A DNA stretch of 64,000 bases, taken from positions 954 to 64,953 of the forward strand of contig JAFUYI010000009.1 of assembly GCA_017470585.1 (NCBI GenBank), in the 5' to 3' direction. Source of the DNA: Alphaproteobacteria bacterium (GTDB taxonomy: Bacteria > Pseudomonadota > Alphaproteobacteria > RF32 > CAG-239). The translations under genes were made by a program, and so were the position numbers. The stretch's first letter is position 1; each line of letters starts with the position of its first letter. Positions 7,413-52,823 of the stretch are shown in pieces. The notes beneath the pieces are model-generated. The model saw nothing but the letters and a program-made list of their open reading frames with translations. It was not told the origin of the DNA and did not search any database.

Positions 7413-7820
7413 TTATTCTGCAGGACTCAAAGCCTGTTCAATAGCTTTTGCTATAAAAGCCGACCGGTTACGGCAAACGGCATCAATTCTTGCAATCAGC
7501 CCTGAATTAAGCATAATTGTATATTTTTTGGGTTTGGCTTCCGGTATATAATACACATATCCGACTGTAAAAGTATAATTATCCTGCCACTCTTGCCAGT
7601 CTTCCCATTCTTTTTTAATTTGCTCTAATGTCCGAGGTTGCGGCACATCTTCGCCGTTTGCCTTTTTCTCTTCAATAATATCAGCCAATATTTCATGCGC
7701 ATTTTTTAACGCATCGTCATAATTTTTTCCGGCGGACACACATCCCGGAAAATCAGGAAACACCACTCCGACCCCATCGGCATACTCATCTGTTTCAAAT
7801 AAGGCAATATATTTTAACAT
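7413..7820 (-). CDS. hicB: Type II antitoxin HicB family
   Basis: 135 aa; UPF0150/HicB N-terminal fold (MLKYIALFETDEYADGVGVVFPDFPGCVSAGKNYDDALKNAHEILADIIEEKKANGEDVPQP) plus a C-terminal RHH-like tail. Located 10 nt downstream of a hicA remnant. Confidence 0.7.
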   Translation of the reverse strand: MLKYIALFETDEYADGVGVVFPDFPGCVSAGKNYDDALKNAHEILADIIEEKKANGEDVPQPRTLEQIKKEWEDWQEWQDNYTFTVGYVYYIPEAKPKKYTIMLNSGLIARIDAVCRNRSAFIAKAIEQALSPAE

Positions 7821-7830
7821 TTTAACCTCC

Positions 7831-8023
7831 TATTTAAGCCCCGCCTGTTTCAAAATACTTGCTGCCGTGCCAATTGGTATGACCTTATGCAAAGGAACGA
7901 CTACCGTGTTTTTCTTTTCATCGTGATAATACACATAATGACTTCCGGTAACTCTGACAAGATGCCAACCGCTTTTTTTCAAGCATTTTAATCAGTTCTT
8001 TTGCAGTATATCTTTTGGGCATT
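7831..8023 (-). pseudogene. hicA: hicA toxin gene disrupted by a frameshift in a homopolymer run
   Basis: From ATG (revcomp 8021-8023) MPKRYTAKELIKMLEKK is in frame. The conserved HicA remainder WHLVRVTGSHYVYYHDEKKNTVVVPLHKVIPIGTAASILKQAGLK* reads in another frame. The break is in a T7 run at 7973-7979 (A7 on the coding strand). Removing one A restores a full-length HicA. Confidence 0.65.
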
Positions 8024-8138
8024 TTGCTTCATTTCCTTTTTTGTAGTTTATACTCATCTATACCGAATTTTTTCGGTATTGTCAAGTTCTTTTTATAAAA
8101 ATAAGATTTTTACTTACCAAATTTTTTTATTTTTTTTC

Positions 8139-8389
8139 TTTACATTATTTATTTTTTATGCTAGGGTGGATTTGAAGTGAGCGAAAAGTCACTTTGAGGT
8201 GTGATAGCCTCTCTTATGGTGTCTAAACAAGACATAAAATTGCTTCTAACCGTACTATGGTTGGAAGGTAGGGGAATATAAAGAATACCTTACACTGTTC
8301 CATAAGACAGCTATCAACTTCCAACCACCTCGCGGGTTTTAATGCCCAAAAGGTGGTTTTTTATAACTTTAGTAAAGGAAGTTTTTGTG
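8139..8389 (+). promoter_or_regulatory. Promoter (-35 TTTACA, 17-bp spacer, -10 TAGGGT) plus ~215-nt structured 5' leader of paralog 1
   Basis: Same element as upstream of all nine paralogs: P1 hairpin AAGTGA/TCACTT, P2 GAGG/CCTC, long-range helix ggttggaag/cttccaacc enclosing P3a GTAGGG/CCTTAC, then terminator-like CCACCT...AGGTGG + U-run before RBS aaggaag. Confidence 0.6.
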
Positions 8390-8863
8390 ATGAAAAAATA
8401 TATTTTAATATTAGGCGTTGCCGGAGTTGCGCTTGGTTCATATTGCGCATACGCTGCCAACTCGGCAACAATGACCGTAACAGCAACAATCGCCCATGAA
8501 GTCAATATCCGTAATATCAGCAATATTGACATCGGCACCATCACTATTGACCCGAGTAAGAGTTCGGGAAGTGTAATAGAAGCTAATTGTGCGTGGGAGG
8601 GTATAGGAGAAGAAGGAAACGGTATAAAATCCATTTCCGGCAGTCCGTGCGGCTATTTCACTGCCGATTTTTCAGGTGGTTGTTCGTTTAATTTTTCGGT
8701 TACACCGGAGGAGGTGTATTGGAATAATATGCACTTCGACTTCGGAGTTGGTAATACCGACACCTCAGGCAGGTGCAGAGTGTGGACAGAATTGGGCTAC
8801 ATTGGCGGCCTTCCGGCGCAAGATACTTATAACGGTAGTCTTACCATAGAATATAATTTGTAA
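8390..8863 (+). CDS. Secreted beta-rich protein, paralog 1 of 9 (SCPU/Csu-pilin-like family; divergent member)
   Basis: 157 aa with signal peptide MKKYILILGVAGVALGSYCAYA and conserved NSATMTVTATIAHEV... The C-terminus GSLTIEYNL is a variant of the family motif. Confidence 0.75.
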   Translation: MKKYILILGVAGVALGSYCAYAANSATMTVTATIAHEVNIRNISNIDIGTITIDPSKSSGSVIEANCAWEGIGEEGNGIKSISGSPCGYFTADFSGGCSFNFSVTPEEVYWNNMHFDFGVGNTDTSGRCRVWTELGYIGGLPAQDTYNGSLTIEYNL

Positions 8864-8893
8864 TATGCAATAAACCGATTCTTTAAAAAAATT

Positions 8894-8927
8894 CCGGCGA
8901 CAGACTTATTTTGCCGCCGGATTTTTT
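8894..8927 (+). terminator. Rho-independent terminator after paralog 1
   Basis: ccggcgacagacttattttgccgccgg followed by attttttg. Confidence 0.6.
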
Positions 8928-9099
8928 GATTGTTTTGCCAAGTTTCAAATAACTATTTGATAATACACAATAAAAAAACTGTGTATTAGATACTTTTATT
9001 TGTTGTTTTTCTTATATAAACAGGATAAAAGCTTGATAAAAATCGGCATCCCCGACCGCATATAAAAAACAATTTCAGCTCAATATTGGGGGAGAAACG

Positions 9100-10830
9100 T
9101 TGGAAATATCGCAAGAAGATAACGATTTATCGGACGGCTCGGCAGAAATATTGAATTTATTAAACTCCGCCGAATTATCGGTAAAAACCAAAATAATGCT
9201 TTTAAATTCCCGACCGCTGTCTGACCAAGAACACGAAAAACGCTATAACCAAATCCAATTAAGCCGCGCCCGCCAGCTTTTGGATGAATATATTATCGGG
9301 CGCGATCTCAAGGATATTATCCAACGACACAAATGCCGCGGAAAAAAAGCTTCATCGGGAAACAATACCGGGCAAGATAAGATGACAACCGCCGAGGCTA
9401 TCAAACAACGGTATCCGCGGCTTGGCGGAAGGCAAATCCGCGATTTTAAAAATCTTGAATTGAAATACATTAAAGAGGCCATTCTTATTGCTCTTGAAAC
9501 CGGACGGGAATTGACCCGCTCTTTGGCTCTGTCCCGCAGTACCCGCAAACGTGCCGACAATGCCAAACAGACAATGCCCGTAAATATCCGGCAGTGGATG
9601 CCCAAAAAGGAAGATTTTGCCGAGGAATACCAAAAATTAAGATTAACGGAAAAAATGGGAGCAACCTCTTTATTTGCCAATATCGGTGTCGGAACCTGCC
9701 TTTTGGAAGCCAACACCCCGATCAGGGTTACGGTTGCCAATGAAAAAGAACCGCGCCGTGCCAAAGCACACAAACGGCTTTATCCCGATTGTGAGGTTAT
9801 TGAGGGAGATATTGCCGACAGCAAAGTTTTTGCCGAAGTAATCAAGGCCCATCGGGAAAAAGACAACAAAATAATGTATATATGCTGTCCCTGTCAGGAT
9901 GCCTCTTCCTTAAATTCCGCAGAAAGCAAAGGGAAAGGAGAGCGAGCGATATTGTTTAAATCGGCATTGGATGTGATTGAGGCGGTTTTGCCGATGTACA
10001 TAGTTTTTGAAAACGTTGCCCGCTGGCTGGAAGGCCGCCCCGAAAGAGCCTTGGACATTTTGGGCGATAAGACCATCGGGAATTACTTGGTTAAAAACCT
10101 TGAATGCTTGGGCTACAATGTAACGGTGGGGATTTTATCGGCGGCAGATTATGAAACTGCCGAAAACCGCGAACGCGCCATTATTTTAGCCTGCAAAAAA
10201 GAATTGGGCGTATGGAAATTTCCCAAAAAACACAAATTCCGCCCTACGGTTTTCGAGGCTATCGGCAATATGAAATCGCTGGAAGCGGGAGAAGTTGATC
10301 CGAATAATAAATGGCATTACGGTCTTCCGCTCGCAAAACACGAAATTGAATTTCTGGCACATACACCAACCGGATGCTCGGCTTGGAATAATGCCAAAAT
10401 CTATCAACCCCGCAACAAAGACGGCTCACCCTCGGGGGCGCAATTTGATGGTTCATATAAAAGAATAGACCCCATCAACCCTTGCAATGTGATTGAAAGC
10501 AGCAGCGGCAGTATCGGCGACATAAACTCCGTTCACTTCGGACGACCTTTGAGCGACGGCACTTATTCAGACAGCCGCGTACTTTCCATTGCCGAGATTC
10601 TGCGCCTTATCGGCACTCCCGATGATTTTTTGGAACCTTTGATATCTCCGCCAAAAGATGATAATGATTTTAACGGTTTAACTTGGAAAGAGGGGCGGCT
10701 GATCGGAGCTGATGAAAGTTTTATCCGCCTCGTTTTGGGGGAACACATGTGTCCGAAACTGTTGCTTAATTTAATGACGACCATGCCGGGAGCAGCAAAT
10801 GACAATGCTCCGCCGGATGATAAAAGTTAA
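9100..10830 (+). CDS. DNA (cytosine-5)-methyltransferase family protein with ~200-aa N-terminal extension; no cognate restriction enzyme nearby
   Basis: 576 aa. Motif I-like SLFANIGVGTCLLEA, motif IV CCPCQDAS (PCQ), motif VI FENV, motif VIII RERAIILA. No endonuclease gene adjacent. Confidence 0.7.
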   Translation: MEISQEDNDLSDGSAEILNLLNSAELSVKTKIMLLNSRPLSDQEHEKRYNQIQLSRARQLLDEYIIGRDLKDIIQRHKCRGKKASSGNNTGQDKMTTAEAIKQRYPRLGGRQIRDFKNLELKYIKEAILIALETGRELTRSLALSRSTRKRADNAKQTMPVNIRQWMPKKEDFAEEYQKLRLTEKMGATSLFANIGVGTCLLEANTPIRVTVANEKEPRRAKAHKRLYPDCEVIEGDIADSKVFAEVIKAHREKDNKIMYICCPCQDASSLNSAESKGKGERAILFKSALDVIEAVLPMYIVFENVARWLEGRPERALDILGDKTIGNYLVKNLECLGYNVTVGILSAADYETAENRERAIILACKKELGVWKFPKKHKFRPTVFEAIGNMKSLEAGEVDPNNKWHYGLPLAKHEIEFLAHTPTGCSAWNNAKIYQPRNKDGSPSGAQFDGSYKRIDPINPCNVIESSSGSIGDINSVHFGRPLSDGTYSDSRVLSIAEILRLIGTPDDFLEPLISPPKDDNDFNGLTWKEGRLIGADESFIRLVLGEHMCPKLLLNLMTTMPGAANDNAPPDDKS

Positions 10831-11447
10831 GCATTGCCATCGGCAAAGCTTAAACCGAATCTTTCAATAAAATGCCTGACAGTTGAGCGATGAACGCCCA
10901 ATATTCGGGCGATTTGCGATTTTGAAACACCGGCTTCCAATAAAATCTGCAAACGCTTGCTGTTTTTGGTGAGCTTGAGTTTTTTAGATTCCGATGCCAG
11001 CGGCCGCCCGAGTTTTTTACCGCGGGCTTTAAGGTTGGCAAGGCTTGATTTGGTGCGTTCGGAAATAAGTTGCCTTTCTATCTCCGCCGCCAACCCGAAA
11101 GCAAAAGCAAGAACTTTTGATTGTATATCATTGCCGAGCCGATAGTTTTCTTTTAAGCTCCAAACGCGGCAGTTTTTGTTAAGACAGATTTCCAAAATTT
11201 TCATAACTTCCAAAAGGGAACGCCCCAAACGTGATATTTCGCAGGTAATAAGCGTATCATTTTCTTGCAATTTGTTCAGAAGTTCACCCAATTTGCGCTT
11301 TTCCAAGGACTTGCGGGAAGATATTTTTTCCTCAATCCAAACATCAATTTTTATCCCCTCTCTGCGTGCAAAATTTTCTATTTCAAAACGCTGATGCTCA
11401 AGTGTTTGATGCGAAGAACTAACTCTAACGTAACCGATTGTAGTCAT
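10827..11447 (-). CDS. Small serine recombinase (resolvase/DNA-invertase family)
   Basis: 206 aa; N-terminal MTTIGYVRVSSSHQTLEHQ with catalytic Ser, resolvase catalytic domain and a C-terminal HTH (SKSQIARILGVHRSTVRHFI). Confidence 0.85.
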   Translation of the reverse strand: MTTIGYVRVSSSHQTLEHQRFEIENFARREGIKIDVWIEEKISSRKSLEKRKLGELLNKLQENDTLITCEISRLGRSLLEVMKILEICLNKNCRVWSLKENYRLGNDIQSKVLAFAFGLAAEIERQLISERTKSSLANLKARGKKLGRPLASESKKLKLTKNSKRLQILLEAGVSKSQIARILGVHRSTVRHFIERFGLSFADGNA

Positions 11448-11612
11448 AATAAAAAACCTCCCAAAATATTAAAAAAACTGATCAATTAAATAGAACGTTT
11501 AAATCAACCGCTTTTCATTAAATATGCACAAATTATCCACAGCCTCTGCCCCGCATGGCTTAAACCTGATTTGAGAATTTTATTTAACATTAAGATTTTT
11601 GCTATTTTCTTC

Positions 11613-11869
11613 TTTACATTGTCAATTTTTTATGATAGGGTGATTTTGAAGTGAATGAAAAGTCACTTTGAGGTGTGGAAACCTCTCATACGATGTCCGC
11701 ACAAGACATAAAACTGCTTCTGGTCGATTATGGCCGGAAGGTGTGGAAATAAGGCTTGCCAAATACCACGCACTGTTTCGTATGACAGTTTCCAACTTCC
11801 GACCACCTCGAGGGATTAGCACCCAACAGGTGGTTTTTTATAACTTTAATAAAAAAGGAAGTTTGAGAT
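11613..11869 (+). promoter_or_regulatory. Promoter (-35 TTTACA, 17 bp, -10 TAGGGT) plus structured leader of paralog 2
   Basis: P1 AAGTGA/TCACTT, P2 GAGG/CCTC, outer helix ggccggaag/cttccgacc, P3a GTGTGG/CCACGCAC, terminator CCACCT...AGGTGG + T6. Confidence 0.6.
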
Positions 11870-12358
11870 ATGAACAAATATATTTTAATGCTAGGCATTG
11901 CCGGTATCGCTCTCGGCAGTTATACTGCCTATGCTAATAATGAAGCCACAATGACCGTTACCGCAACGATTGCCCACGACGTGAGCTTAACCAAAGTTGA
12001 TGATATTCATTTTGATATGACGGTTAACCCTGCCGTGACATCGCTTGAAGATGGTAGATTGTTTCCCGGAGATCCTTATGCTCCTGAGAACAGCGGTGTA
12101 ACTGCATTCAGCGGAAATGTCGGTACTTTCCGAGGCAATATTCCCAATCCTGATGACGCTGTTGAAAACAGCAAATTCACTTTTTCTCCGGATACTTTGA
12201 CAAGCTCAACTTTGAGTGTTTCTTTTTGGGATGGATGTATAACATATAACAGCGGCACATCATTATTTGAGGTTAATCCTATGATTAGTTATCATAACGG
12301 CGCACCCGGCGCAGGTGATCATAATTTCGGAAGTGTGCTTATCACTTACCATCCGTAA
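11870..12358 (+). CDS. Secreted beta-rich protein, paralog 2 (divergent C-terminal half; single Cys)
   Basis: 162 aa; MNKYILMLGIAGIALGSYTAYANNEATMTVTATIAHDVSL..., C-terminus VLITYHP. Confidence 0.75.
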   Translation: MNKYILMLGIAGIALGSYTAYANNEATMTVTATIAHDVSLTKVDDIHFDMTVNPAVTSLEDGRLFPGDPYAPENSGVTAFSGNVGTFRGNIPNPDDAVENSKFTFSPDTLTSSTLSVSFWDGCITYNSGTSLFEVNPMISYHNGAPGAGDHNFGSVLITYHP

Positions 12359-12514
12359 TTAAAGCATAAAAAAACGAAGCGGGGGGATTTAAAAAAATCT
12401 CCCCGCAGTTATATCTGCCGTTCCTTTTAGCAAAAAATAGTCTGTTTTGTAAAGAAAAGTGTTGTTATTTATAAAATAACTGCTAAACTGCAGGCAAATA
12501 TTTTAAGGATAACC

Positions 12515-17457: not shown

Positions 17458-18426
17458 TTAAGTTACCTCGGTTACGGCGCGCAAGTTGCCGTCACGGTTG
17501 ATTTGAACCACCCTTAATTTATGGTGCATCTCCTCAATTGTCTTGCGTCTGTCCAAAGTCGGATAGGAGTGCAAAATACGATCAACAAACGCCTCGTACG
17601 CCGCACTGGAACTTTCGGCGTGGATGGTTGCCAAGCAGTTATCGTGACCTGATCCCATCAGCTCCCATAAAGCTCCGGCGTTTCCGGTTGAAATCTCACC
17701 TCCGATAATCGCATCCGGAGTAAAACGAACCACCAAGTCAATAATTCCTTTATAATCGAACTGGTTGGTCTGTCCGGTACGCGACATTACGATATGAACA
17801 CGATTAGGGTGCGGAACCAAAAGTTCCCGCGCATCCTCAATCGTTATAACGCGTTTATGAATGTCCAAAATTTTCAACAAGTTGTTCAAAAAGGTGGTCT
17901 TACCGGTTGCAGTCGCACCGCTGACCAGAATATGATCACCCCTTTTAATACTCAACAGCAGCCGTTCATACGGATCATCGGGGTCTTTAATATTCTTCAA
18001 CGGGTTAATTTGGTGCAATTTTTCACCCTGTTTCAAACCGTAATCCCCCAAACCGAACGCCACATCATCGCTATGAACACGGATAGCTATAGCAACACCG
18101 CCGGTAATATCGCCTTCATCGTACATCACGTTTTTACCGCAGATTGCCGAAAAACGATGTTCCCCGGGAATAGTGGCATAAACCACCGGCGTTCCCGAAA
18201 CCGGATCAAACGGCAGTTCATAGGTATTGGCAACGATATAAAGTAAATCAGTCAAGTACTCCTTGCTTAATTTTTCATCTTTATACATCACCCACGGATA
18301 CGCCCTTTTGCCGCGCAGTCGGAGCCATACCTGCCCGGAGCGGTTAATGGCAACCTCTTCAATGCCTTCTTGGTTGTACCAGTATGCCAACGGGCGAAGA
18401 ACCGATTCCAATACTTCAAAACTCAT
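17458..18426 (-). CDS. virB11: T4SS ATPase VirB11/TrbB family
   Basis: 322 aa; Walker A SGATATGKTTFLN, Walker B/His box; T2SS-E/VirB11 family. Confidence 0.9.
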   Translation of the reverse strand: MSFEVLESVLRPLAYWYNQEGIEEVAINRSGQVWLRLRGKRAYPWVMYKDEKLSKEYLTDLLYIVANTYELPFDPVSGTPVVYATIPGEHRFSAICGKNVMYDEGDITGGVAIAIRVHSDDVAFGLGDYGLKQGEKLHQINPLKNIKDPDDPYERLLLSIKRGDHILVSGATATGKTTFLNNLLKILDIHKRVITIEDARELLVPHPNRVHIVMSRTGQTNQFDYKGIIDLVVRFTPDAIIGGEISTGNAGALWELMGSGHDNCLATIHAESSSAAYEAFVDRILHSYPTLDRRKTIEEMHHKLRVVQINRDGNLRAVTEVT

Positions 18427-25700: not shown

Positions 25701-28250
25701 ATTGCCGTTTTCATCGTATGCAAGCTCATTTTTGCCCGATACACCGATAACATTACCGTTTTCATCGACAATCAAACCGTCCTCATTACGATGACCTATA
25801 ACTTCACCGTCAAAATTGCGGACATTACCGTTTTCATCAACATAGCCTATGACATTGCCGTTCTCATCGTATGCAAGCTCATTTTTGCCCGATACACCGA
25901 TAACATTACCGTTTTCATCAACAATCAAGCCGTCTTCATTGACACGACCGATTACCTCTCCGTCAAAATTATAAACATTGCCGTCCTCTCCGACGTATCC
26001 TATAACATTGCCGTTTTCATCATACACAAGTTCGTCACGAGAAGATGAGCCTATCACCTGTCCGTTTTCATCAACAATTGTACCGTCGGCATTAAGCTTG
26101 CCTATCTGCTTGCCGGTAAAATCATAAACATTGCCGTTTTCATCAATGTAACCGATAACATTGCCATCATTATCGTATGCCAAACGTTGCACCGGAGCCT
26201 TACCGATTATATTGCCGTCCTCATCTACGACATTTCCCTCATCATCAACACGGCCTATGATTTTGCCGTTAAAATCAACCACATTGCCGGCATCATCAAC
26301 ATAACCGATAATATTGCCATTATCATCGTATGCGACTTTTTGTTTTGAGGACATTCCTATAATATTGCCGTCATCATCAACAATTAACCCATCGGAACGC
26401 ATATGCCCGATTTTATTGCCGGCAAAATCATAAACATTGCCGTTTTCATCGATATAACCGATGACTCGACCATCTTTATCGTACGCCAAACGTTGCCCGG
26501 GAGCCATACCGATAACTTCACCGTTTTCATCTACAATCAAGCCTTCTTCATTTACCTGCCCGATGACATTGCCTTTCAAATCGTGCACTATGCCGTTGTC
26601 ATCAACATAACCGATAACGTGTCCGTCTTTATCGTAAGCCCAGCTTGATACTTTGGAATCAACATCACCCTCCGGTGCGGCACGTCCTATGATGTTGCCT
26701 TCTTCATCGATCAACATCCCGTTTTCAGCCATAATGCCGAGCTTTTTACCGCCCTCACCGATAACATTGCCGTTTTCATCAATGTAGCCGATAACGTGTC
26801 CGTCATTATCATAAGCCAATAACGCTCCCGAAGCCGTTAATTCGTTGCCGTCGTTATCAACGATTTTACCGTCGGGACGAGTGCGTCCGATAACATTGCC
26901 ATGAAAATCACGAACAGTTCCGTCATCATCAACATAGCCTACAACCTGTCCGTCCTTATTATAGACCATGCGCCGCGATATGCTCTTACTCGGAAGATTC
27001 TTATCAGCTATAACATTGCCGTCTTTATCAACACGTCCGACGACCTCACCGTTGGCATCGACCACCGTACCGTCAGGCATAACCACGCCGATAATGTTAC
27101 CGTCTTCATCAACCGCCACCCTTCCGGTTTTGGTAACATGACCGATAACCTGCCCGTTTTCATCTACGACTTCGCCTTTTTCATTGAGTCTGCCGATAAC
27201 TTGTCCGTTTTCATCAACCACTGTACCGTCCGGCATAACCCTGCCGATAATATTGCCGTCATCATCATAGACATATCCCATATCAACGGCATGACCGATG
27301 ATCGAACCGTTGGCATCAACCACCGTACCGTCAGGCATCATCTGTCCGATAACATTACCGTTTAAGTCAACGACACTGCCATCAGGATTGACATAACCTA
27401 TAACATTGCCGGAATCATCATAAACAAGCTTTCGGTTATTGGCAACACCGATAATGTTACCCTCACCGTCAACCACAAGACCGTTTTCGTTTACTCTTCC
27501 GATAACGTTACCGTTGGCATCATAGACATACCCTTCATCGTCGGCATAGCCGATAACCGAGCCGTCCGGCCCCACGATTGAACGTGAACGCGGCGATGCG
27601 CCTTTGGCGTTCTTTGATGCAACCGCCGCTCCGCCCAAATTGGTATCACAGAAATTGCAGTCCTCTTTGGTAACAGCATTGCCGTAAACGGGAACTTTCT
27701 CGGATTTGGCATTGGCTTGAGTTACGTTGCTCTCATGCCATGAAATGATAAAATTATTCTGCACATTGCCGGTTACAACCGGAACCCAGCTCATGGTAAC
27801 ATCACAGGTTTCCTTACCGCGCAGAACTTTACCGCTGCATTGATCATTGAATTTAAATCCGTCAAACGGTGTTTCCGCAAGCTGCACGGTCAAAATTGCC
27901 ACCGAGGCTTTACCGTTGGTGCCAATAGTTAAAACATTTTTAGCATCAGAACCGATAATCACCTGCCCCAAAGCGACAGGATTGGGAGTTGTGGTAATCG
28001 GCGGAACCCCCTCATCAACAGTACTGAACTCAATGCTTTCCTCTTGGGGAGCGGATTGAGTAACCACGTTTAGAGGATCGTCGTTGGAGGTAAACACCGG
28101 CTCGCTGTATTCGCTGATTTGATCATCACTTGAAAACAACAAATACAATCCGATGACAAAAATAACAAAAGAAGTTATACCAACCGCAAGAATTATGCGG
28201 TTGGTTTTTTTGATATAACTTTCAGAATGTGTTAAAACTTCTTTACTCAT
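22752..28250 (-). CDS. Giant membrane-anchored tandem-repeat protein (~1832 aa), same repeat type as the VirB10 N-terminus; translationally coupled between virB9 and virB10
   Basis: ORF 22752-28271. The likely start MSKEVL is at 28248-28250, forming an ATGA overlap with the virB9 stop. N-terminal TM helix (ILAVGITSFVIFVIGLYLLF), a ~190-aa non-repeat domain, then about 70 copies of DxxGNVIGYVDENGNVxDxxGxVIG-type repeats to the C-terminus. The stop overlaps the virB10 start (ATGA). Confidence 0.7.
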   Translation of the reverse strand: MSKEVLTHSESYIKKTNRIILAVGITSFVIFVIGLYLLFSSDDQISEYSEPVFTSNDDPLNVVTQSAPQEESIEFSTVDEGVPPITTTPNPVALGQVIIGSDAKNVLTIGTNGKASVAILTVQLAETPFDGFKFNDQCSGKVLRGKETCDVTMSWVPVVTGNVQNNFIISWHESNVTQANAKSEKVPVYGNAVTKEDCNFCDTNLGGAAVASKNAKGASPRSRSIVGPDGSVIGYADDEGYVYDANGNVIGRVNENGLVVDGEGNIIGVANNRKLVYDDSGNVIGYVNPDGSVVDLNGNVIGQMMPDGTVVDANGSIIGHAVDMGYVYDDDGNIIGRVMPDGTVVDENGQVIGRLNEKGEVVDENGQVIGHVTKTGRVAVDEDGNIIGVVMPDGTVVDANGEVVGRVDKDGNVIADKNLPSKSISRRMVYNKDGQVVGYVDDDGTVRDFHGNVIGRTRPDGKIVDNDGNELTASGALLAYDNDGHVIGYIDENGNVIGEGGKKLGIMAENGMLIDEEGNIIGRAAPEGDVDSKVSSWAYDKDGHVIGYVDDNGIVHDLKGNVIGQVNEEGLIVDENGEVIGMAPGQRLAYDKDGRVIGYIDENGNVYDFAGNKIGHMRSDGLIVDDDGNIIGMSSKQKVAYDDNGNIIGYVDDAGNVVDFNGKIIGRVDDEGNVVDEDGNIIGKAPVQRLAYDNDGNVIGYIDENGNVYDFTGKQIGKLNADGTIVDENGQVIGSSSRDELVYDENGNVIGYVGEDGNVYNFDGEVIGRVNEDGLIVDENGNVIGVSGKNELAYDENGNVIGYVDENGNVRNFDGEVIGHRNEDGLIVDENGNVIGVSGKNELAYDENGNIIGYVGEDGNVYNFDGEVIGRKDENGNVIDENGNIIGKAKKASSKSARLAYDENGKVIGYVDDNGNVIGSDGEIIGRVRADGKIIDENGKIIGKTGKSKAARLAYDENGKVIGYVDKDGQVIGNDGKVIGKVRADGAVVDKNGRVIGKTKQSTEGNNLRLAYDKNGKVMGYVDENGNVFGDNGKKIGSLKDDGTIIDAFGNVIGKLDGGSNKRLAYDKDGNIIGYVDEDGNVVDFSGQIIGKMLDDGTIVDENGQIIGQAGLMSRQLAYDKNGNVMGYVDENGNVVNFNGDAIGKLMPSGKIVDNDGNEIGEVGGFANVLLDKNSKIMGYVGRDGEVFDTEGNVIGYVDENGQVINNTQNVLGRLIQEQMIPITPQGKVLGKVNNNGTVENDAKQIVGRVQSNGMVKSPSGSTIVARLVRGGLVVGQGCKNIGYLEKDGTIKAANITTKYKVNADGVIIDDTGEYIGEVVTLGPVFDDTCTKIGEVETDGIVRQNGSYVGCVNPDGTVLDEKGDIIGGVARSGIAVSYDGNFLGKVEENGLVLSPQGQAVGCVGTYGDVFDKKGAYLGRVLENLYAYDLEGNFLNMVNSNARVPIRGQSSGRLLAHNVVIDENSKIIGVAMPSKTTIVDYKGSVIGRLFPDGNVYDGKGVSAGKFYGDGTAFYNRKPGFTALRGQVIDFAGKVIGMVGYNNEVVNRFGEKLGRLDAKGYYFDKQGVVKGGVVKRGAAIGYDGSFLGYSLSDGKIIDLDGKTVGRSTPDGKALNNKSAIVGEVIGEEIVVDVWGNYKGHINSLGDVIDLNGKNITAILPGGSTDKNLSLLKRGAVIDFSGKVIGSVMPDGEVLDVLNINIGRALSDGNVLNSSGRLIGEVVDGDLVINSEDKVVGYIAADGSVVDSGGAVVGRSLSTDLALDANEGILGRIYKIGATVLSNTGRYVGRLNANGMVIDTENKVIGYLKSNGSFINLDKRVAGYALQEVAKNRRN
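25000..26650. repeat. Near-identical intragenic tandem DNA repeats (~147-nt higher-order unit encoding ...VSGKNELAYDENGNVIGYVDENGNVRNFDGEVIG...)
   Basis: Protein residues ~560-900 of the giant ORF contain almost identical consecutive 47-49-aa blocks. The opposite strand yields long artefactual periodic ORFs (25248-26048, 26403-26648). Boundaries are approximate. Confidence 0.6.
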
Positions 28251-45905: not shown

Positions 45906-48410
45906 GTGTGGATGGAGATTTTGACTTTTGATATAAAAAGAAAGGCTTTTTTGATGTGTGATACAAATGCTCGCCGCAACGGCAAGACCTTTGAAGAGTG
46001 GCAAAAAGAATGGGCTTTGGAAGACCGATACAATTTCCGCACCATTGAGGAAAAATGGCAAAAAATTTGGGAAGATGAAAAAACTTATCATGTGGATATT
46101 GATAAAACAAAAGAAAAATTTTATGTGTTAGTGGAATTTCCCTACCCATCCGGCGCCGGACTTCATGTCGGACATCCGCGCTCTTATACCGCTCTGGATG
46201 TAGTGGCGCGCAAAAAGAGAATGCAGGGTTATAATGTCTTATATCCGATGGGCTTTGATGCCTTCGGACTGCCGGCGGAAAACTATGCGATTAAAACCGG
46301 TGTTCACCCTGCTATATCCACAAAGGCCAATATTGCCAATTTTACCAAACAGCTTAAATCTTTGGGTTTCAGTTTTGATTGGGACAGATGTGTAACCACC
46401 TGCGACCCCGAATATTATAAGTGGACACAGTGGATGTTCATTAAATTTTTTGAAAAAGGCTTGGCTTATAAAGACAAAATCGCCATTAACTGGTGTCCGA
46501 GCTGCAAAGTCGGTCTTGCCAACGAAGAAGTGGTGAACGGCTGTTGCGAACGTTGCGGCGCGCAGGTCATACGCAAAGACAAAGAGCAATGGATGATTGC
46601 CATCACCAAATATGCCGACAGGTTAATCAATGATTTGGGGGATTTGGATTTTATTGACAGAGTAAAATCCCAGCAGATTAATTGGATAGGCCGTTCCGAA
46701 GGAGCCGAGCTTGACTTTGATTTTGCCGAGGATAAATTAACGGTATTCACCACCCGCCCCGATACGGCTTTCGGTGTAACCTATATGGTATTGGCTCCTG
46801 AACATCCGTTTGTGGCTAAATATATGGAACGCTTTGAAAATCAAGATGAAATCAAAGCGTATGTGGAAGAAACGGCCAAAAAGTCGGAATTACAGCGCAG
46901 TATGAGCGAAGAAAAAACCGGCGTTGAGTTAAAAGGAATCAAAGCAAGAAATCCCTTTAACGGCAAGATGATTCCGGTGTTTATTTCCGATTATGTCTTA
47001 ACCGGATACGGCACCGGCGCAATTATGGCTGTTCCGGCTCACGATCAACGGGACTATGATTTTGCCAAAGTATTTAACCTGCCGATTATCCAAGTTTTGG
47101 AAGGCGGCGACATTTCCGAAAAGGCGTGGGAAGAAGACGGCGCACATATCAACTCACAGTTTTTGGACGGTATGAACAAAGAAGACGGCATGAAAGCAGC
47201 GATTGATTATGCACTTAAAAACGGCTTCGGACATCCGAAAATAAACTTCAAACTGCGTGATTGGGTATTCTCCCGCCAACGCTATTGGGGCGAGCCGATA
47301 CCGATGGTTTATTGCGAGCATTGCGGTTGGCAGCCGGTACCGGAGAACGAACTGCCGTTAACCCTGCCTGAAGTACCGGATTACCATCCCAACGATGAGG
47401 GCGAATCTCCGCTTTCAAAAGCAACTGACTGGTTAAACACGACCTGCCCGAAATGCGGCGGTCACGCCAGACGCGAAACCGATGTTATGCCGAACTGGGC
47501 GGGATCGTCGTGGTATTTTCTGCGTTATTGCGATCCGCATAACGATAAAGAATTTGCCTCAAAAGAAGCTCTCAACTATTGGATGAACGTTGATTGGTAC
47601 AACGGCGGTATGGAGCATACCACTTTGCACTTGTTATATTCCCGTTTTTGGCATAAGTTTTTGTATGACTGCGGATATGTACCGACTAAAGAACCCTACA
47701 ACAAACGCACTTCACACGGTATGATTCTGGCTTCAAACGGCGAGAAAATGTCAAAATCCCGCGGCAACGTGATAAATCCTGACGACATTGTCAACAATTA
47801 CGGCGCGGATACATTCCGTTTATACGAAATGTTTATCGGTCCGTTTGATCAGGTGGCAATGTGGTCGGAAGAAAGCTTAATGGGTGTTTACCGATTTGTC
47901 GGCAAGGTTTACTCTCTGTTCAAGAAAGTAGCAAACATCAAACCGAAAGAAGAGGATTTGCGCGCTATGCACAAGTGCATTTTGGAAGTTACCGAGCGAA
48001 TTGACAATATGAAATTCAATACTGCGGTTTCTTCACTAATGAGCTATGTAAACTATTTAACCGCCTTGGATAAAATCCCGCAGGAACTTTATGAAACACT
48101 GATGAAATTGATGTCCCCGTTTACTCCGCATATAGCAGAAGAAATGTGGGCAAGGATGAAAAAAGAAACTCTTGTGTTAAATGAGCCGTGGCCGCAAGGT
48201 GATGAAAAGTTGGCAGAGGATAACGTTGTTACCTTGGCAGTGCAGATTTGCGGCAAAATGCGCGGCACGATTGAAATGAAAAAGGATGCTCCGCAAGCCG
48301 AAGTAGAGCAAAAAGCTTTGTCTTTGGAAAATGTGGCGCGTCAATTAGAGGGGCGCGAAATCAAGAAAATAATTGTTGTACCGAATAGGATTGTGAACAT
48401 TGTTGCGTAA
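45906..48410 (+). CDS. leuS: Leucine--tRNA ligase
   Basis: HVGH (HIGH) motif, KMSKS, CP1 editing domain and Zn-binding Cys clusters. The true start may be the internal ATG at 45954 (MCDTN...). Confidence 0.93.
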   Translation: MWMEILTFDIKRKAFLMCDTNARRNGKTFEEWQKEWALEDRYNFRTIEEKWQKIWEDEKTYHVDIDKTKEKFYVLVEFPYPSGAGLHVGHPRSYTALDVVARKKRMQGYNVLYPMGFDAFGLPAENYAIKTGVHPAISTKANIANFTKQLKSLGFSFDWDRCVTTCDPEYYKWTQWMFIKFFEKGLAYKDKIAINWCPSCKVGLANEEVVNGCCERCGAQVIRKDKEQWMIAITKYADRLINDLGDLDFIDRVKSQQINWIGRSEGAELDFDFAEDKLTVFTTRPDTAFGVTYMVLAPEHPFVAKYMERFENQDEIKAYVEETAKKSELQRSMSEEKTGVELKGIKARNPFNGKMIPVFISDYVLTGYGTGAIMAVPAHDQRDYDFAKVFNLPIIQVLEGGDISEKAWEEDGAHINSQFLDGMNKEDGMKAAIDYALKNGFGHPKINFKLRDWVFSRQRYWGEPIPMVYCEHCGWQPVPENELPLTLPEVPDYHPNDEGESPLSKATDWLNTTCPKCGGHARRETDVMPNWAGSSWYFLRYCDPHNDKEFASKEALNYWMNVDWYNGGMEHTTLHLLYSRFWHKFLYDCGYVPTKEPYNKRTSHGMILASNGEKMSKSRGNVINPDDIVNNYGADTFRLYEMFIGPFDQVAMWSEESLMGVYRFVGKVYSLFKKVANIKPKEEDLRAMHKCILEVTERIDNMKFNTAVSSLMSYVNYLTALDKIPQELYETLMKLMSPFTPHIAEEMWARMKKETLVLNEPWPQGDEKLAEDNVVTLAVQICGKMRGTIEMKKDAPQAEVEQKALSLENVARQLEGREIKKIIVVPNRIVNIVA

Positions 48411-50715: not shown

Positions 50716-50992
50716 TTGATTTAGAATAAAACTTATGTTATAGTTTATACTGAAGTGAGTGAAAAACCGCTTTGAGGTCTGAAAACCTCGCAATTGACGT
50801 TTATAAAGAAAAACGTAAAAATTCTTCCTGCTATAATGGTCGGAAGGCAAAGAAATAAGAGATACCTCAAATACTTTGCACTGGTTCAATTGTCAGTTTT
50901 CAGCTTCCGACCACCTCGCGGGTTTGAATACCCAAAAGGTGGTTTTCTTTTAATGTTAACAAAAAAAGAAAATTATAAAGGAAGTAAGAAAG
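50716..50992 (+). promoter_or_regulatory. Promoter (-35 TTGATT, 17 bp, -10 TATAGT with upstream TG) plus structured leader of paralog 6
   Basis: P1 AAGTGA/CCGCTT (with U-G wobble), P2 GAGG/CCTC, outer helix ggtcggaag/cttccgacc, P3a GCAAAG/CTTTGC, inner hairpin CTGgttcaattgtCAG, terminator CCACCTcgcgggtttgaatacccaaaAGGTGG + ttttctttt (50911-50952). The last ~88 nt are identical to the paralog 7 leader. Confidence 0.6.
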
Positions 50993-51710: not shown

Positions 51711-52823
51711 ATGGAAAAAGATCCCTTCAAAGAATATCTTCGCCAATCCGAACCCGGCAAGCGTGATAAGAGTTATGCTTGGAATACCGCTATCGGTTTG
51801 CAAGATGTTGATGGACTAAAGACTTCGGAATACTTAAAAGATACCGCAATCAAAAATATTGAAGGTGACATTACCATTGATGAAGCGCAAACACTGCTTA
51901 ACACCTATTATAAAGAAAACAATCAAAAAAACAAAAAAGACCGAACCGAAGAAGCCGATAAAGTTTCCCTCCGAATTGCAAAGATTTTATCGGAAAAGGC
52001 TTTCAGTTTTTCTGCAAATGAGTATATTTCCATTCATAAGAAACTGTTTGACGGTATCTATGATTATGCTGGCCGCTTTCGCGATTATAATATTACCAAA
52101 AAAGAATGGGTATTAGACGGAGATACCGTTATTTATGGAACAGCCACTGAATTAAAAGCTACATTGGACTACGATATTTCGCAGGAAAAGAAATTTAATT
52201 ATAAAGGTCTGTCCCCTCAAGAGATTATACATCATTTGGCTTTGTTTATTTCCGGATTGTGGCAAATTCATGCTTTTGGCGAAGGCAACACCAGAACAAC
52301 CGCAGTATTTTTTATCAAATACTTGCGAACTCTGGGTTTTGATGTCACAAATGATATTTTTGCTCATAATTCATGGTATTTCAGAAATGCGCTTGTTCGG
52401 GCAAATTATACCGATTTAACAAGAAATATTCATTCAACCACGGAATATTTAGAGTTGTTTTTAGAAAATCTGTTGTTGGGCAAGAATCACAAACTGCTTA
52501 ACCGAATGATGCATATAAGTCATATATTGGATAGAAAAGTAGATATTGAAGCTTCAAAAGTAGATATTCGGGCTTCAAAAGTAGATATTGAATATCTATG
52601 TCGCGAAAGATTACCGAACATCACAACCAAATCTATCCGGCATATTTTGAAGATTTATGAGACATGTAGTAACACCCGACATTTTGGTCGCAGTGAGATT
52701 ATTGAAATCACAAATCTCAAACCCGCTATGGCTTCAAGGCTACTCAAACTTCTTTTAGACAATGGAATCATTAGGCCTATACAGGGCAAAGGTAAAGGTA
52801 AATATATTTTTGCCATTGGATAA
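51711..52823 (+). CDS. Fic/DOC family protein with non-canonical active-site motif and C-terminal wHTH
   Basis: 370 aa; Fic motif region IHAFGEGNTRTTAVF (canonical HPFx[DE]GNGRxxR is degenerate here). A short tandem peptide repeat SKVDIEASKVDIRASKVDIE lies near the C-terminus. Confidence 0.65.
   Translation: MEKDPFKEYLRQSEPGKRDKSYAWNTAIGLQDVDGLKTSEYLKDTAIKNIEGDITIDEAQTLLNTYYKENNQKNKKDRTEEADKVSLRIAKILSEKAFSFSANEYISIHKKLFDGIYDYAGRFRDYNITKKEWVLDGDTVIYGTATELKATLDYDISQEKKFNYKGLSPQEIIHHLALFISGLWQIHAFGEGNTRTTAVFFIKYLRTLGFDVTNDIFAHNSWYFRNALVRANYTDLTRNIHSTTEYLELFLENLLLGKNHKLLNRMMHISHILDRKVDIEASKVDIRASKVDIEYLCRERLPNITTKSIRHILKIYETCSNTRHFGRSEIIEITNLKPAMASRLLKLLLDNGIIRPIQGKGKGKYIFAIG

Follow-up and report, generated by a model that had tools for sequence, protein, structure and literature searches.

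A 64,000-nucleotide stretch of the genome of an alphaproteobacterium (GenBank assembly GCA_017470585.1, contig JAFUYI010000009.1, positions 954 to 64,953 of the forward strand; hereafter the window) carries a solitary C5-cytosine DNA methyltransferase gene (the methylase) and, convergent with it, a gene for a small serine recombinase related to the Mpi invertase family. The pair lies between the first two of nine paralogous genes for secreted proteins. Comparison with loci from relatives indicates that the region 9100–11519 is probably what is left, after decay, of an integrative element whose family circulates among Alphaproteobacteria of the gut and rumen, and it does not support control of the paralogs by the invertase. 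In intact relatives the layout comprises a gene of 385–417 codons, the methylase, the convergent recombinase, a crossover site (A), an invertible segment of 125–140 bp, a second crossover site (B) and a divergent surface gene. In the window, site B appears to have been lost, and the second paralog module, with its own promoter and leader, stands where site B and the divergent gene would have been. Since site B is gone, no local inversion should be possible in the window.

Locus organization

The features of the locus are as follows, with positions counted from the first nucleotide of the window.

8090–8930 (+): flank with paralog module 1, consisting of a promoter, a structured leader of ~200 nt, the gene at 8390–8863, and a GC-rich hairpin followed by a T run at ~8891–8930
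8935–8964 (+): candidate methylase promoter, TTGCCA-18-GATAAT (consensus scan only, 10/12 matches), ~135 nt 5' of the methylase start
9100–10830 (+): solitary C5-cytosine DNA methyltransferase, 576 aa (PF00145, TIGR00675, PADLOC MTase_II)
9100–9654 (+): family-specific N-terminal helical domain of the methylase (AlphaFold2 model)
9664–10632 (+): catalytic and target-recognition region of the methylase, aa 189–511 (PF00145 match, motifs and fold)
10827–11447 (−): Mpi-family small serine recombinase, 206 aa (PF00239, NF009949, phrog_125)
11480–11509 (−): site A, the recombinase-proximal crossover site (position weight matrix scan, and conservation 5' of homologs)
11510–11578 (no strand): residue of the invertible segment, with site B missing and a weak gapped resemblance to it at 11557–11575
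11579–12406 (+): flank with paralog module 2, consisting of a promoter, a leader, the gene at 11870–12358 and a terminator at 12379–12406

The methylase (+) and recombinase (−) genes are convergent and their stop codons share 4 nt. An earlier note on this DNA, made from the sequence alone, had described a Dcm-class methyltransferase open reading frame (ORF) convergent with an adjoining 206-aa serine recombinase ORF, the two lying between paralogs 1 and 2; both ORFs are found at the positions it gave, and the flanking paralog genes start at 8390 and 11870. A HicA/HicB toxin-antitoxin pair (PF07927, PF15919) is encoded at 7413–7982 (−), directly 5' of paralog module 1.

Loci from relatives, which are regions of metagenome-assembled genomes (MAGs) or genomes around homologs of the recombinase or the methylase, were numbered L0xx. 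Five retrieved assemblies of the window's own strain, out of seven contigs with the gene, are collinear with the window. In two independent assemblies of that strain (L004 and L005) the sequence is broken at the same point, window position 10689, which is 138 nt ahead of the methylase stop codon; this shared break hints at strain variation, or at a second copy of the block made up of the methylase end and the recombinase in those samples.

Family and state of the recombinase

The recombinase matches PF00239 (E = 1.7e-33) and has a C-terminal helix-turn-helix (HTH) domain (HTH_7/HTH_23). Its best NCBIfam model is NF009949, the 'master DNA invertase Mpi family', at 270.3 bits, with the next model at 42 bits; the alignment extends over profile positions 3–196 of 203, and the score is 1.7 bits short of the equivalog cut-off of 272 bits. 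The best PHROG is phrog_125, DNA invertase (E = 5e-47), and the nearest solved structure is that of Gin (E = 2.8e-13), with Tn3 resolvase a weaker match (E = 4e-10). More than 7,900 homologs were found, the top ones, from uncultured gut and rumen Alphaproteobacteria, being ~80% identical. Homologs at ~79% identity carry the NCBI name Mpi family, and the recombinase shares 46–57% identity with plasmid genes from several phyla that PGAP annotates as Mpi family. The ORF is intact, with the catalytic Ser10, an SRLGRS motif and the C-terminal HTH, and the ratio of nonsynonymous to synonymous substitution rates (dN/dS) against relatives is 0.04–0.09, with dS saturated. Simple promoter scans found no promoter for the recombinase gene itself.

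Crossover sites

The flank between 11447 and 11632, where the earlier note had proposed a search for recombination sites, contains one, a 30-bp imperfect dyad at 11480–11509. Read on the recombinase strand, this site A is GGTTGATTTAAACG TT CTATTTAATTGATC, with its centre ~47 nt ahead of the ATG. Its counterpart in relatives, GGTTGATTTAAWCG TT CTATTAAATTGACC, is a 30–34-bp imperfect dyad centred ~50 nt ahead of the ATG, and is conserved 5' of nearly all of ~80 recombinase homologs. Inverted repeats with the core ARACGTTCGTN have been reported for the Mpi-controlled promoters of Bacteroides fragilis, and in B. intestinalis GTTCGTTTAA flanks Mpi-controlled promoters of 183–186 bp (PMC8375218). 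The core of the alphaproteobacterial sites, TTTAAACGTTC / AAACGTACGTTTAAA, matches both reported repeats; the window site contains TTTAAACGTTCTA, the core of the Mpi target repeat, and the relatives L071 and L072 contain TTTAAACGTACGTTTAAA. A variant form of the Mpi consensus, ARACGTWCGT, has 10 matches in the window, against 11.9 expected.

A scan of the 64 kb with the site A matrix gave a single full site, with half-site scores of 20.3 and 11.2 and a total of 31.5, compared with maxima below 14 in shuffled sequence; no second copy of the motif was found in the window. A lone strong half-site, GGTTGATTTTAACG, at 26267–26280 (−) inside a gene for a 1839-aa beta-flower/RHS-repeat protein linked to the type IV secretion locus, is probably a chance match. 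Site B (AYAAACC AA CG...) was found in 54 loci, 171–232 nt ahead of the ATG. In the window its best matrix score is 9, against a training range of 18–38, and shuffled sequences reach 17.5. A gapped resemblance to site B was seen by eye, in comparison with L064, at 11557–11575 (CTCAAATCAGGTTTAAGCC on the recombinase strand); it gives no score in the gapless site B matrix and is proposed, with low confidence, as a vestige of that site. Similarity at the DNA level to all relatives stops at 11515–11519, directly beyond site A. The earlier note had reported no obvious long inverted repeats, and none was detected in the 7–13 kb region or in the whole window, where only chance-level pairs occur.

The invertible switch of relatives

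Among gut and rumen Alphaproteobacteria, ~80 related loci have a segment of 125–140 bp, lying between sites A and B, ahead of the recombinase gene. This segment flips, and both orientations are present in nature. In two MAGs (L019 and L020) the flanks are identical at 120/120 and 47/47 positions, while the intervening 138-bp segment is identical at 135/138 positions only as the reverse complement; similarly, the segments of L049 and L052 agree at 120/124 positions as reverse complements. The flips break exactly at the centre of site A, and the flipped state was seen in about eight loci, including L010, L019, L022, L049, L079 and L082. Several MAG contigs end in the switch or at its edge (L006, L007, L034, L047, L050, L057, L072 and L073), that of L034 beginning right at the core of site A; mixed orientations in a sample could cause such ends, as could a gene present in several copies.

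In almost every locus a divergent ORF starts 1–110 nt past site B. The genes at this position are diverse, with surface proteins frequent among their products, and include those for autotransporters (L029, L036, L063), a YadA-like adhesin (L077), a GT2 glycosyltransferase (L026) and a lipoprotein (L012). The distal half of site A carries TTGAYT, a −35-like hexamer. Once the segment has flipped, a −10 element lies 16–18 nt from this hexamer, in the fixed flank on the far side of site B. In 27/54 loci (7% expected) the −10 has the strict form TAnnnT at a spacer of 16–18, and in many of the others it is cATAAT with a TG ahead of it, as in an extended −10. Because the two elements come to this spacing after a flip, the arrangement is best read from the sequences as a split promoter, which would serve the divergent gene and be whole in the flipped state only. 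In these relatives the invertase flips the segment between A and B, which brings the TTGAYT −35 element near a TGn-extended −10 past site B and would so form a promoter for the divergent gene.

Some loci depart from this layout. In L054 (6829–7970) two hybrid sites lie in direct orientation, 1.1 kb apart, on either side of a gene for a 276-aa protein of unknown function; in the first, the distal half of site A is joined to foreign sequence, and in the second, foreign sequence is joined to the proximal half beside the recombinase. This attL/attR-like signature suggests that the enzyme can also insert or excise DNA. In L075 (5709–8000) a full, inverted site A stands 2.2 kb 5' of the recombinase. 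The gene that lies between this site and the recombinase, for a YadA-like adhesin, is inverted relative to L077 and L078, as if a larger segment with a gene in it had been flipped. In L041 two sites with the same orientation are spaced 173 nt apart.

The window recombinase resembles Mpi of B. fragilis (NF009949 / PRK13413) in being a small serine recombinase of ~200 aa with a C-terminal HTH, and its relatives, like Mpi, flip short promoter-bearing segments ahead of surface-structure genes, at sites whose core is shared with the Mpi inverted repeats (PMC8375218). It differs in its score just below the curated cut-off, and the alphaproteobacterial genes each have their own cis-linked switch of 125–140 bp, whereas Mpi serves 13 distant regions. 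The alphaproteobacterial switch also appears to move only the −35 box rather than a whole promoter. Inversion of the segment is seen in the L019/L020 and L049/L052 comparisons and not in the window, where site A is alone. Two Mpi-family genes from outside the clade, on plasmids of Parabacteroides and Desulforapulum, were examined and have no site-A-like sequence 5', so the cis-linked switch is taken to be a trait of the alphaproteobacterial clade. With the Din family (Hin, Gin, Cin and Pin) the clade shares a recombinase gene that adjoins one of two inverted crossover sites, sites that are imperfect dyads around a 2-bp centre, and Gin as the nearest solved structure. The crossover sites of Hin and Gin are 12+2+12 bp, compared with 14+2+14 bp in this clade, the sequence relation of the window recombinase to these enzymes is only distant, and the invertible segment is ~130 bp and non-coding, unlike the gene-bearing segment of 1–4 kb in the Din family.

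These comparisons also bear on whether the recombinase could be a Tn3- or plasmid-type resolvase, with the upstream site serving as res in cointegrate or multimer resolution. Such an enzyme would account for a single site directly 5' of the gene, as with res and tnpR, and for the replication-type proteins (PolA-primase, Rep-like) encoded by the element family; Tn3 resolvase is a detectable relative, and Tn3 and gamma-delta resolvases have the same fold. It is nonetheless very improbable: Mpi is the best family and Gin scores above Tn3, no transposase adjoins the recombinase, and the relatives have two sites that are inverted rather than direct, with natural flips between them. The 14+2+14 matrix scan gave no further full sites, in most loci finding a single full site beside the gene, while accessory sites with other res spacings were not searched for. 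The view of the recombinase as an invertase, a possibility that the earlier note had raised, rather than as a resolvase is thus borne out by its best family, its nearest structure and the real flips in relatives.

Integrative elements in relatives

Loci from GTDB genomes show a recurrent order of a gene of unknown function, the methylase, DUF3768, the switch and recombinase, and a large serine recombinase. In L012 the series is a large serine recombinase, an S24 repressor, a 385-aa unknown gene product, the methylase, the convergent small recombinase, the switch, a lipoprotein, DUF3768 and Fic. The convergent pairing of methylase and recombinase seen in the window recurs in L012 and L031, both with the upstream gene. 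In L014 a tyrosine integrase gene beside lptFG is followed by a gene for a 408-aa unknown protein and the methylase, and both L013 and L014 lie in defence-like islands. The recombinase and its switch are also found alone among housekeeping genes (L008 and L009).

The window keeps the methylase, the recombinase and site A, and both ends of the L012/L031-type arrangement are missing. A tblastn search over the 64 kb (E ≤ 0.1) with six other backbone or cargo proteins found nothing, and the proteins absent by this measure include the upstream gene product, the large serine recombinase, DUF3768, the S24 repressor and other L012 proteins. The window thus lacks the integrase and backbone genes of an integrative element, and the locus was classed as a fragment because only the methylase and recombinase of the backbone are present. 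The suggestion in the earlier note that the pair is a remnant mobile element is upheld, in that both genes sit in integrative elements in relatives and every other backbone gene is missing from the window.

The methylase

The methylase gene has a TTG start codon with a GGGGGAG ribosome-binding site. PF00145 matches residues 189–511 of the protein (E = 4.9e-28, 98.9 bits against a cut-off of 22), TIGR00675 matches at 68 bits, and PADLOC MTase_II at E = 7e-56. The three motifs that had been picked out from the sequence alone are all in place: PCQ (motif IV) at aa 264–266 (nt 9889–9897), ENV (motif VI) at aa 304–306 (nt 10009–10017) and RERAIILA (motif VIII) at aa 357–364 (nt 10168–10191); motif I is LFANIGVG (aa 191–198). 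An AlphaFold2 model built from 53 homologs has a mean pLDDT (predicted local distance difference test score) of 84.8, and a Foldseek search with it returned M.HaeIII and M.HhaI at E-values of 1e-14 to 1e-15, together with the DNMT1 fold. A phage origin was considered and rejected, as IMG/VR and INPHARED give only distant matches to the catalytic domain (22–35% identity).

The long N-terminal extension noticed earlier, of 188 aa, is real and is conserved in the family. It is modelled as a long helical hairpin (aa 14–78) followed by a helical bundle (aa 97–166). The domain has no Pfam match and no sequence match in the PDB, and it matches only 7 cluster representatives among 1.84 billion proteins, so that by sequence it appears nearly unique and private to this methylase family. 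The closest full-length homologs are 643–690 aa long and at most 65% identical, and tblastn homology to the family begins at 9121, against homolog residue 85–107 (85–97 in the closest). The window methylase is shorter than these closest homologs by ~85–97 residues at the N-terminus, and a longer ORF is forbidden by an in-frame stop codon at 9037.

In having all the catalytic motifs and the fold, no adjacent endonuclease gene and carriage on mobile elements in relatives, the methylase is like the orphan C5-methyltransferases (Dcm / M.HaeIII / M.HhaI class) of phages, integrative and conjugative elements and other integrative elements. It is unlike them in that its family has a helical N-terminal domain of ~190–280 aa restricted to a small family, and in that a conserved upstream gene always accompanies it in relatives. 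The solitary methylase, with its catalytic part intact, would most likely still methylate a short motif throughout the genome, as orphan methylases borne on such elements do to escape restriction.

Companionship with the upstream gene raises the alternative that the methylase is one half of a restriction-modification or defence system, with the 385–417-aa upstream gene product as its partner, and that the window copy has persisted post-segregationally once the toxic partner was lost. In seven loci (L012, L013, L014, L016, L031, L049 and L058) the upstream gene adjoins the methylase in the same orientation, in two more (L051 and L087) it lies 5' of the methylase, and the placement of L013 and L014 in defence-like islands would suit a defence role. 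The upstream protein itself has no Pfam, PHROG or PADLOC match and no nuclease motif was identified in it, and we consider this alternative unlikely. As the earlier note had stated, the methylase has no restriction partner here: the interval 8864–11870 contains no restriction-enzyme-like ORF and no cognate endonuclease ORF that would place it in a Type II restriction-modification system.

The paralog family

The nine paralog genes start at 8390, 11870, 16874, 42372, 43928, 50993, 53189, 58910 and 60093, and all are on the + strand, in agreement with the single orientation described in the earlier note. They encode secreted proteins of ~160–180 aa without a Pfam match, which have a common N-terminus (MKNYILMLGVAG...SNSATMTVTATIAHDVSL) and C-termini such as GTLTISYNPE. 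Only 198 matches to the family were found among 5.8 billion proteins, ~100 of them carrying the locus-tag prefix of this one MAG (IJ689_) and the others IJ529_ or IJ677_, in a genome that, judged from the highest locus tag, has ~1,600 genes. The family is a massive lineage-specific expansion.

All nine have the same promoter, fixed and conserved, and a structured leader of ~200 nt that closes with a terminator-like hairpin and T run. These elements are located ~230 nt 5' of the genes (e.g., 8165–8378, 11640–11850 and 50755–50965), and of the 52 pairs that RNAalifold predicted for the leader, 28 show compensatory changes. In Rfam no family attained its gathering score with the leaders; the weak matches of three of them to sRNA-Xcc1 (RF02221), at 34.1, 27.9 and 25.4 bits, fall well below its gathering score of 53. 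The leader may be a new cis-regulatory RNA.

The earlier note had raised the possibility that the invertase switches the neighbouring surface-protein genes by inversion of a promoter or gene. Relatives of this invertase family do switch divergent surface genes, and paralog 2, which is divergent from the recombinase, stands at the position of a controlled gene. Several other observations speak against such control, and we regard it as highly improbable, the least probable of the explanations considered. The paralogs share one orientation and fixed promoters and leaders, matrix scans found no sequence like site A or B near any of the nine, the inverted repeats are at chance level and the 64 kb contain a single recombinase site. 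A tblastn search found no paralog gene near the recombinase in 84 other distinct loci examined, and the five collinear assemblies of the strain show no alternative arrangement. With ~100 copies of the family in the MAG and 9 in 64 kb, a paralog beside the recombinase is unremarkable.

Other parts of the window were noted in passing. A type IV secretion locus at 17458–41735 (−) encodes a VirB11-like ATPase, CagX/VirB9, VirB4/CagE, a 1438-aa protein in which a TrbI/VirB10 domain is fused to beta-flower repeats, and the 1839-aa beta-flower/RHS-repeat protein mentioned above. A Fic/DOC-family gene at 51711–52823 (+) lies between two paralog modules, and the L012 element also has Fic. The cumulative GC skew has its minimum at ~45–46 kb, where the coding strand turns from mostly − to mostly + (leuS is at 45906), and this may be a replication origin or terminus; paralogs lie on the + strand on both sides of it.

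Probable decay of the locus and possible present-day role of the recombinase

Several observations weigh against a reading of the locus as a decayed fragment. The methylase and recombinase ORFs are both intact, and the window recombinase keeps every residue that is invariant in the alphaproteobacterial clade, so 'relic' describes the architecture of the locus and not necessarily its proteins. N-terminally shorter methylase homologs occur in other genomes, so the shortening may reflect variation that the enzyme tolerates and not damage, and the absence of ~85 residues need not inactivate it. The GC content of the block, and that of its third codon positions (GC3), is host-like and gives no compositional sign of recent acquisition. 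The search for an empty site gave no paralog 2 ortholog with more than 52% identity, and a metagenome scan with the FliN-like neighbour likewise found nothing. Lastly, the search for a partner site covered 64 kb of the genome only.

The intactness of the recombinase gives weight to an alternative in which it still functions as an invertase, acting in trans on complete A/B switches at other places in the genome, and the methylase is an active orphan. This overlaps with the explanation preferred here, that of a decayed element fragment, and differs from it only in the present-day role of the recombinase. Besides the intact ORF, the retained invariant residues and the low dN/dS, it can draw on several MAGs that hold 2–3 copies of the recombinase gene, each with its own switch, on the Mpi homologs from Parabacteroides and Desulforapulum, which have no adjoining site, and on B. 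fragilis Mpi, which acts on 13 distant sites (PMC4747536). Set against it are the lack of any other site within the 64 kb searched and a dN/dS that does not isolate the terminal branch. We regard it as possible, though less probable than the decayed fragment. A stricter proposal is held more tentatively still: having lost its own cis switch, the recombinase, intact and under selection, would now work only in trans, on A/B switches in other parts of this small genome. In a more remote variant, hinted at by the hybrid sites of L054, the recombinase would use the solitary site A as a landing site at which to insert or excise DNA.

Implications

On the reading of the locus as a decayed element, the methylase/recombinase pair is probably a mobile-element relic, and the regulation of the huge paralog family is not explained by it. 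The inversion-based switching proposed for the paralogs is not supported at this locus. The intact recombinase may still work in trans on other parts of the genome, and would then represent a snapshot of a local, Hin-like invertase becoming a global, Mpi-like master invertase. More broadly, Mpi-family invertases of uncultured gut and rumen Alphaproteobacteria each come with a small switch in cis, its sites A and B ~130 bp apart, ahead of adhesin-type genes. Both orientations of this switch are visible across public MAGs, which gives a simple sequence signature for phase-variable genes in uncultured organisms, and the comparison of switches also yields a testable model of a split promoter.

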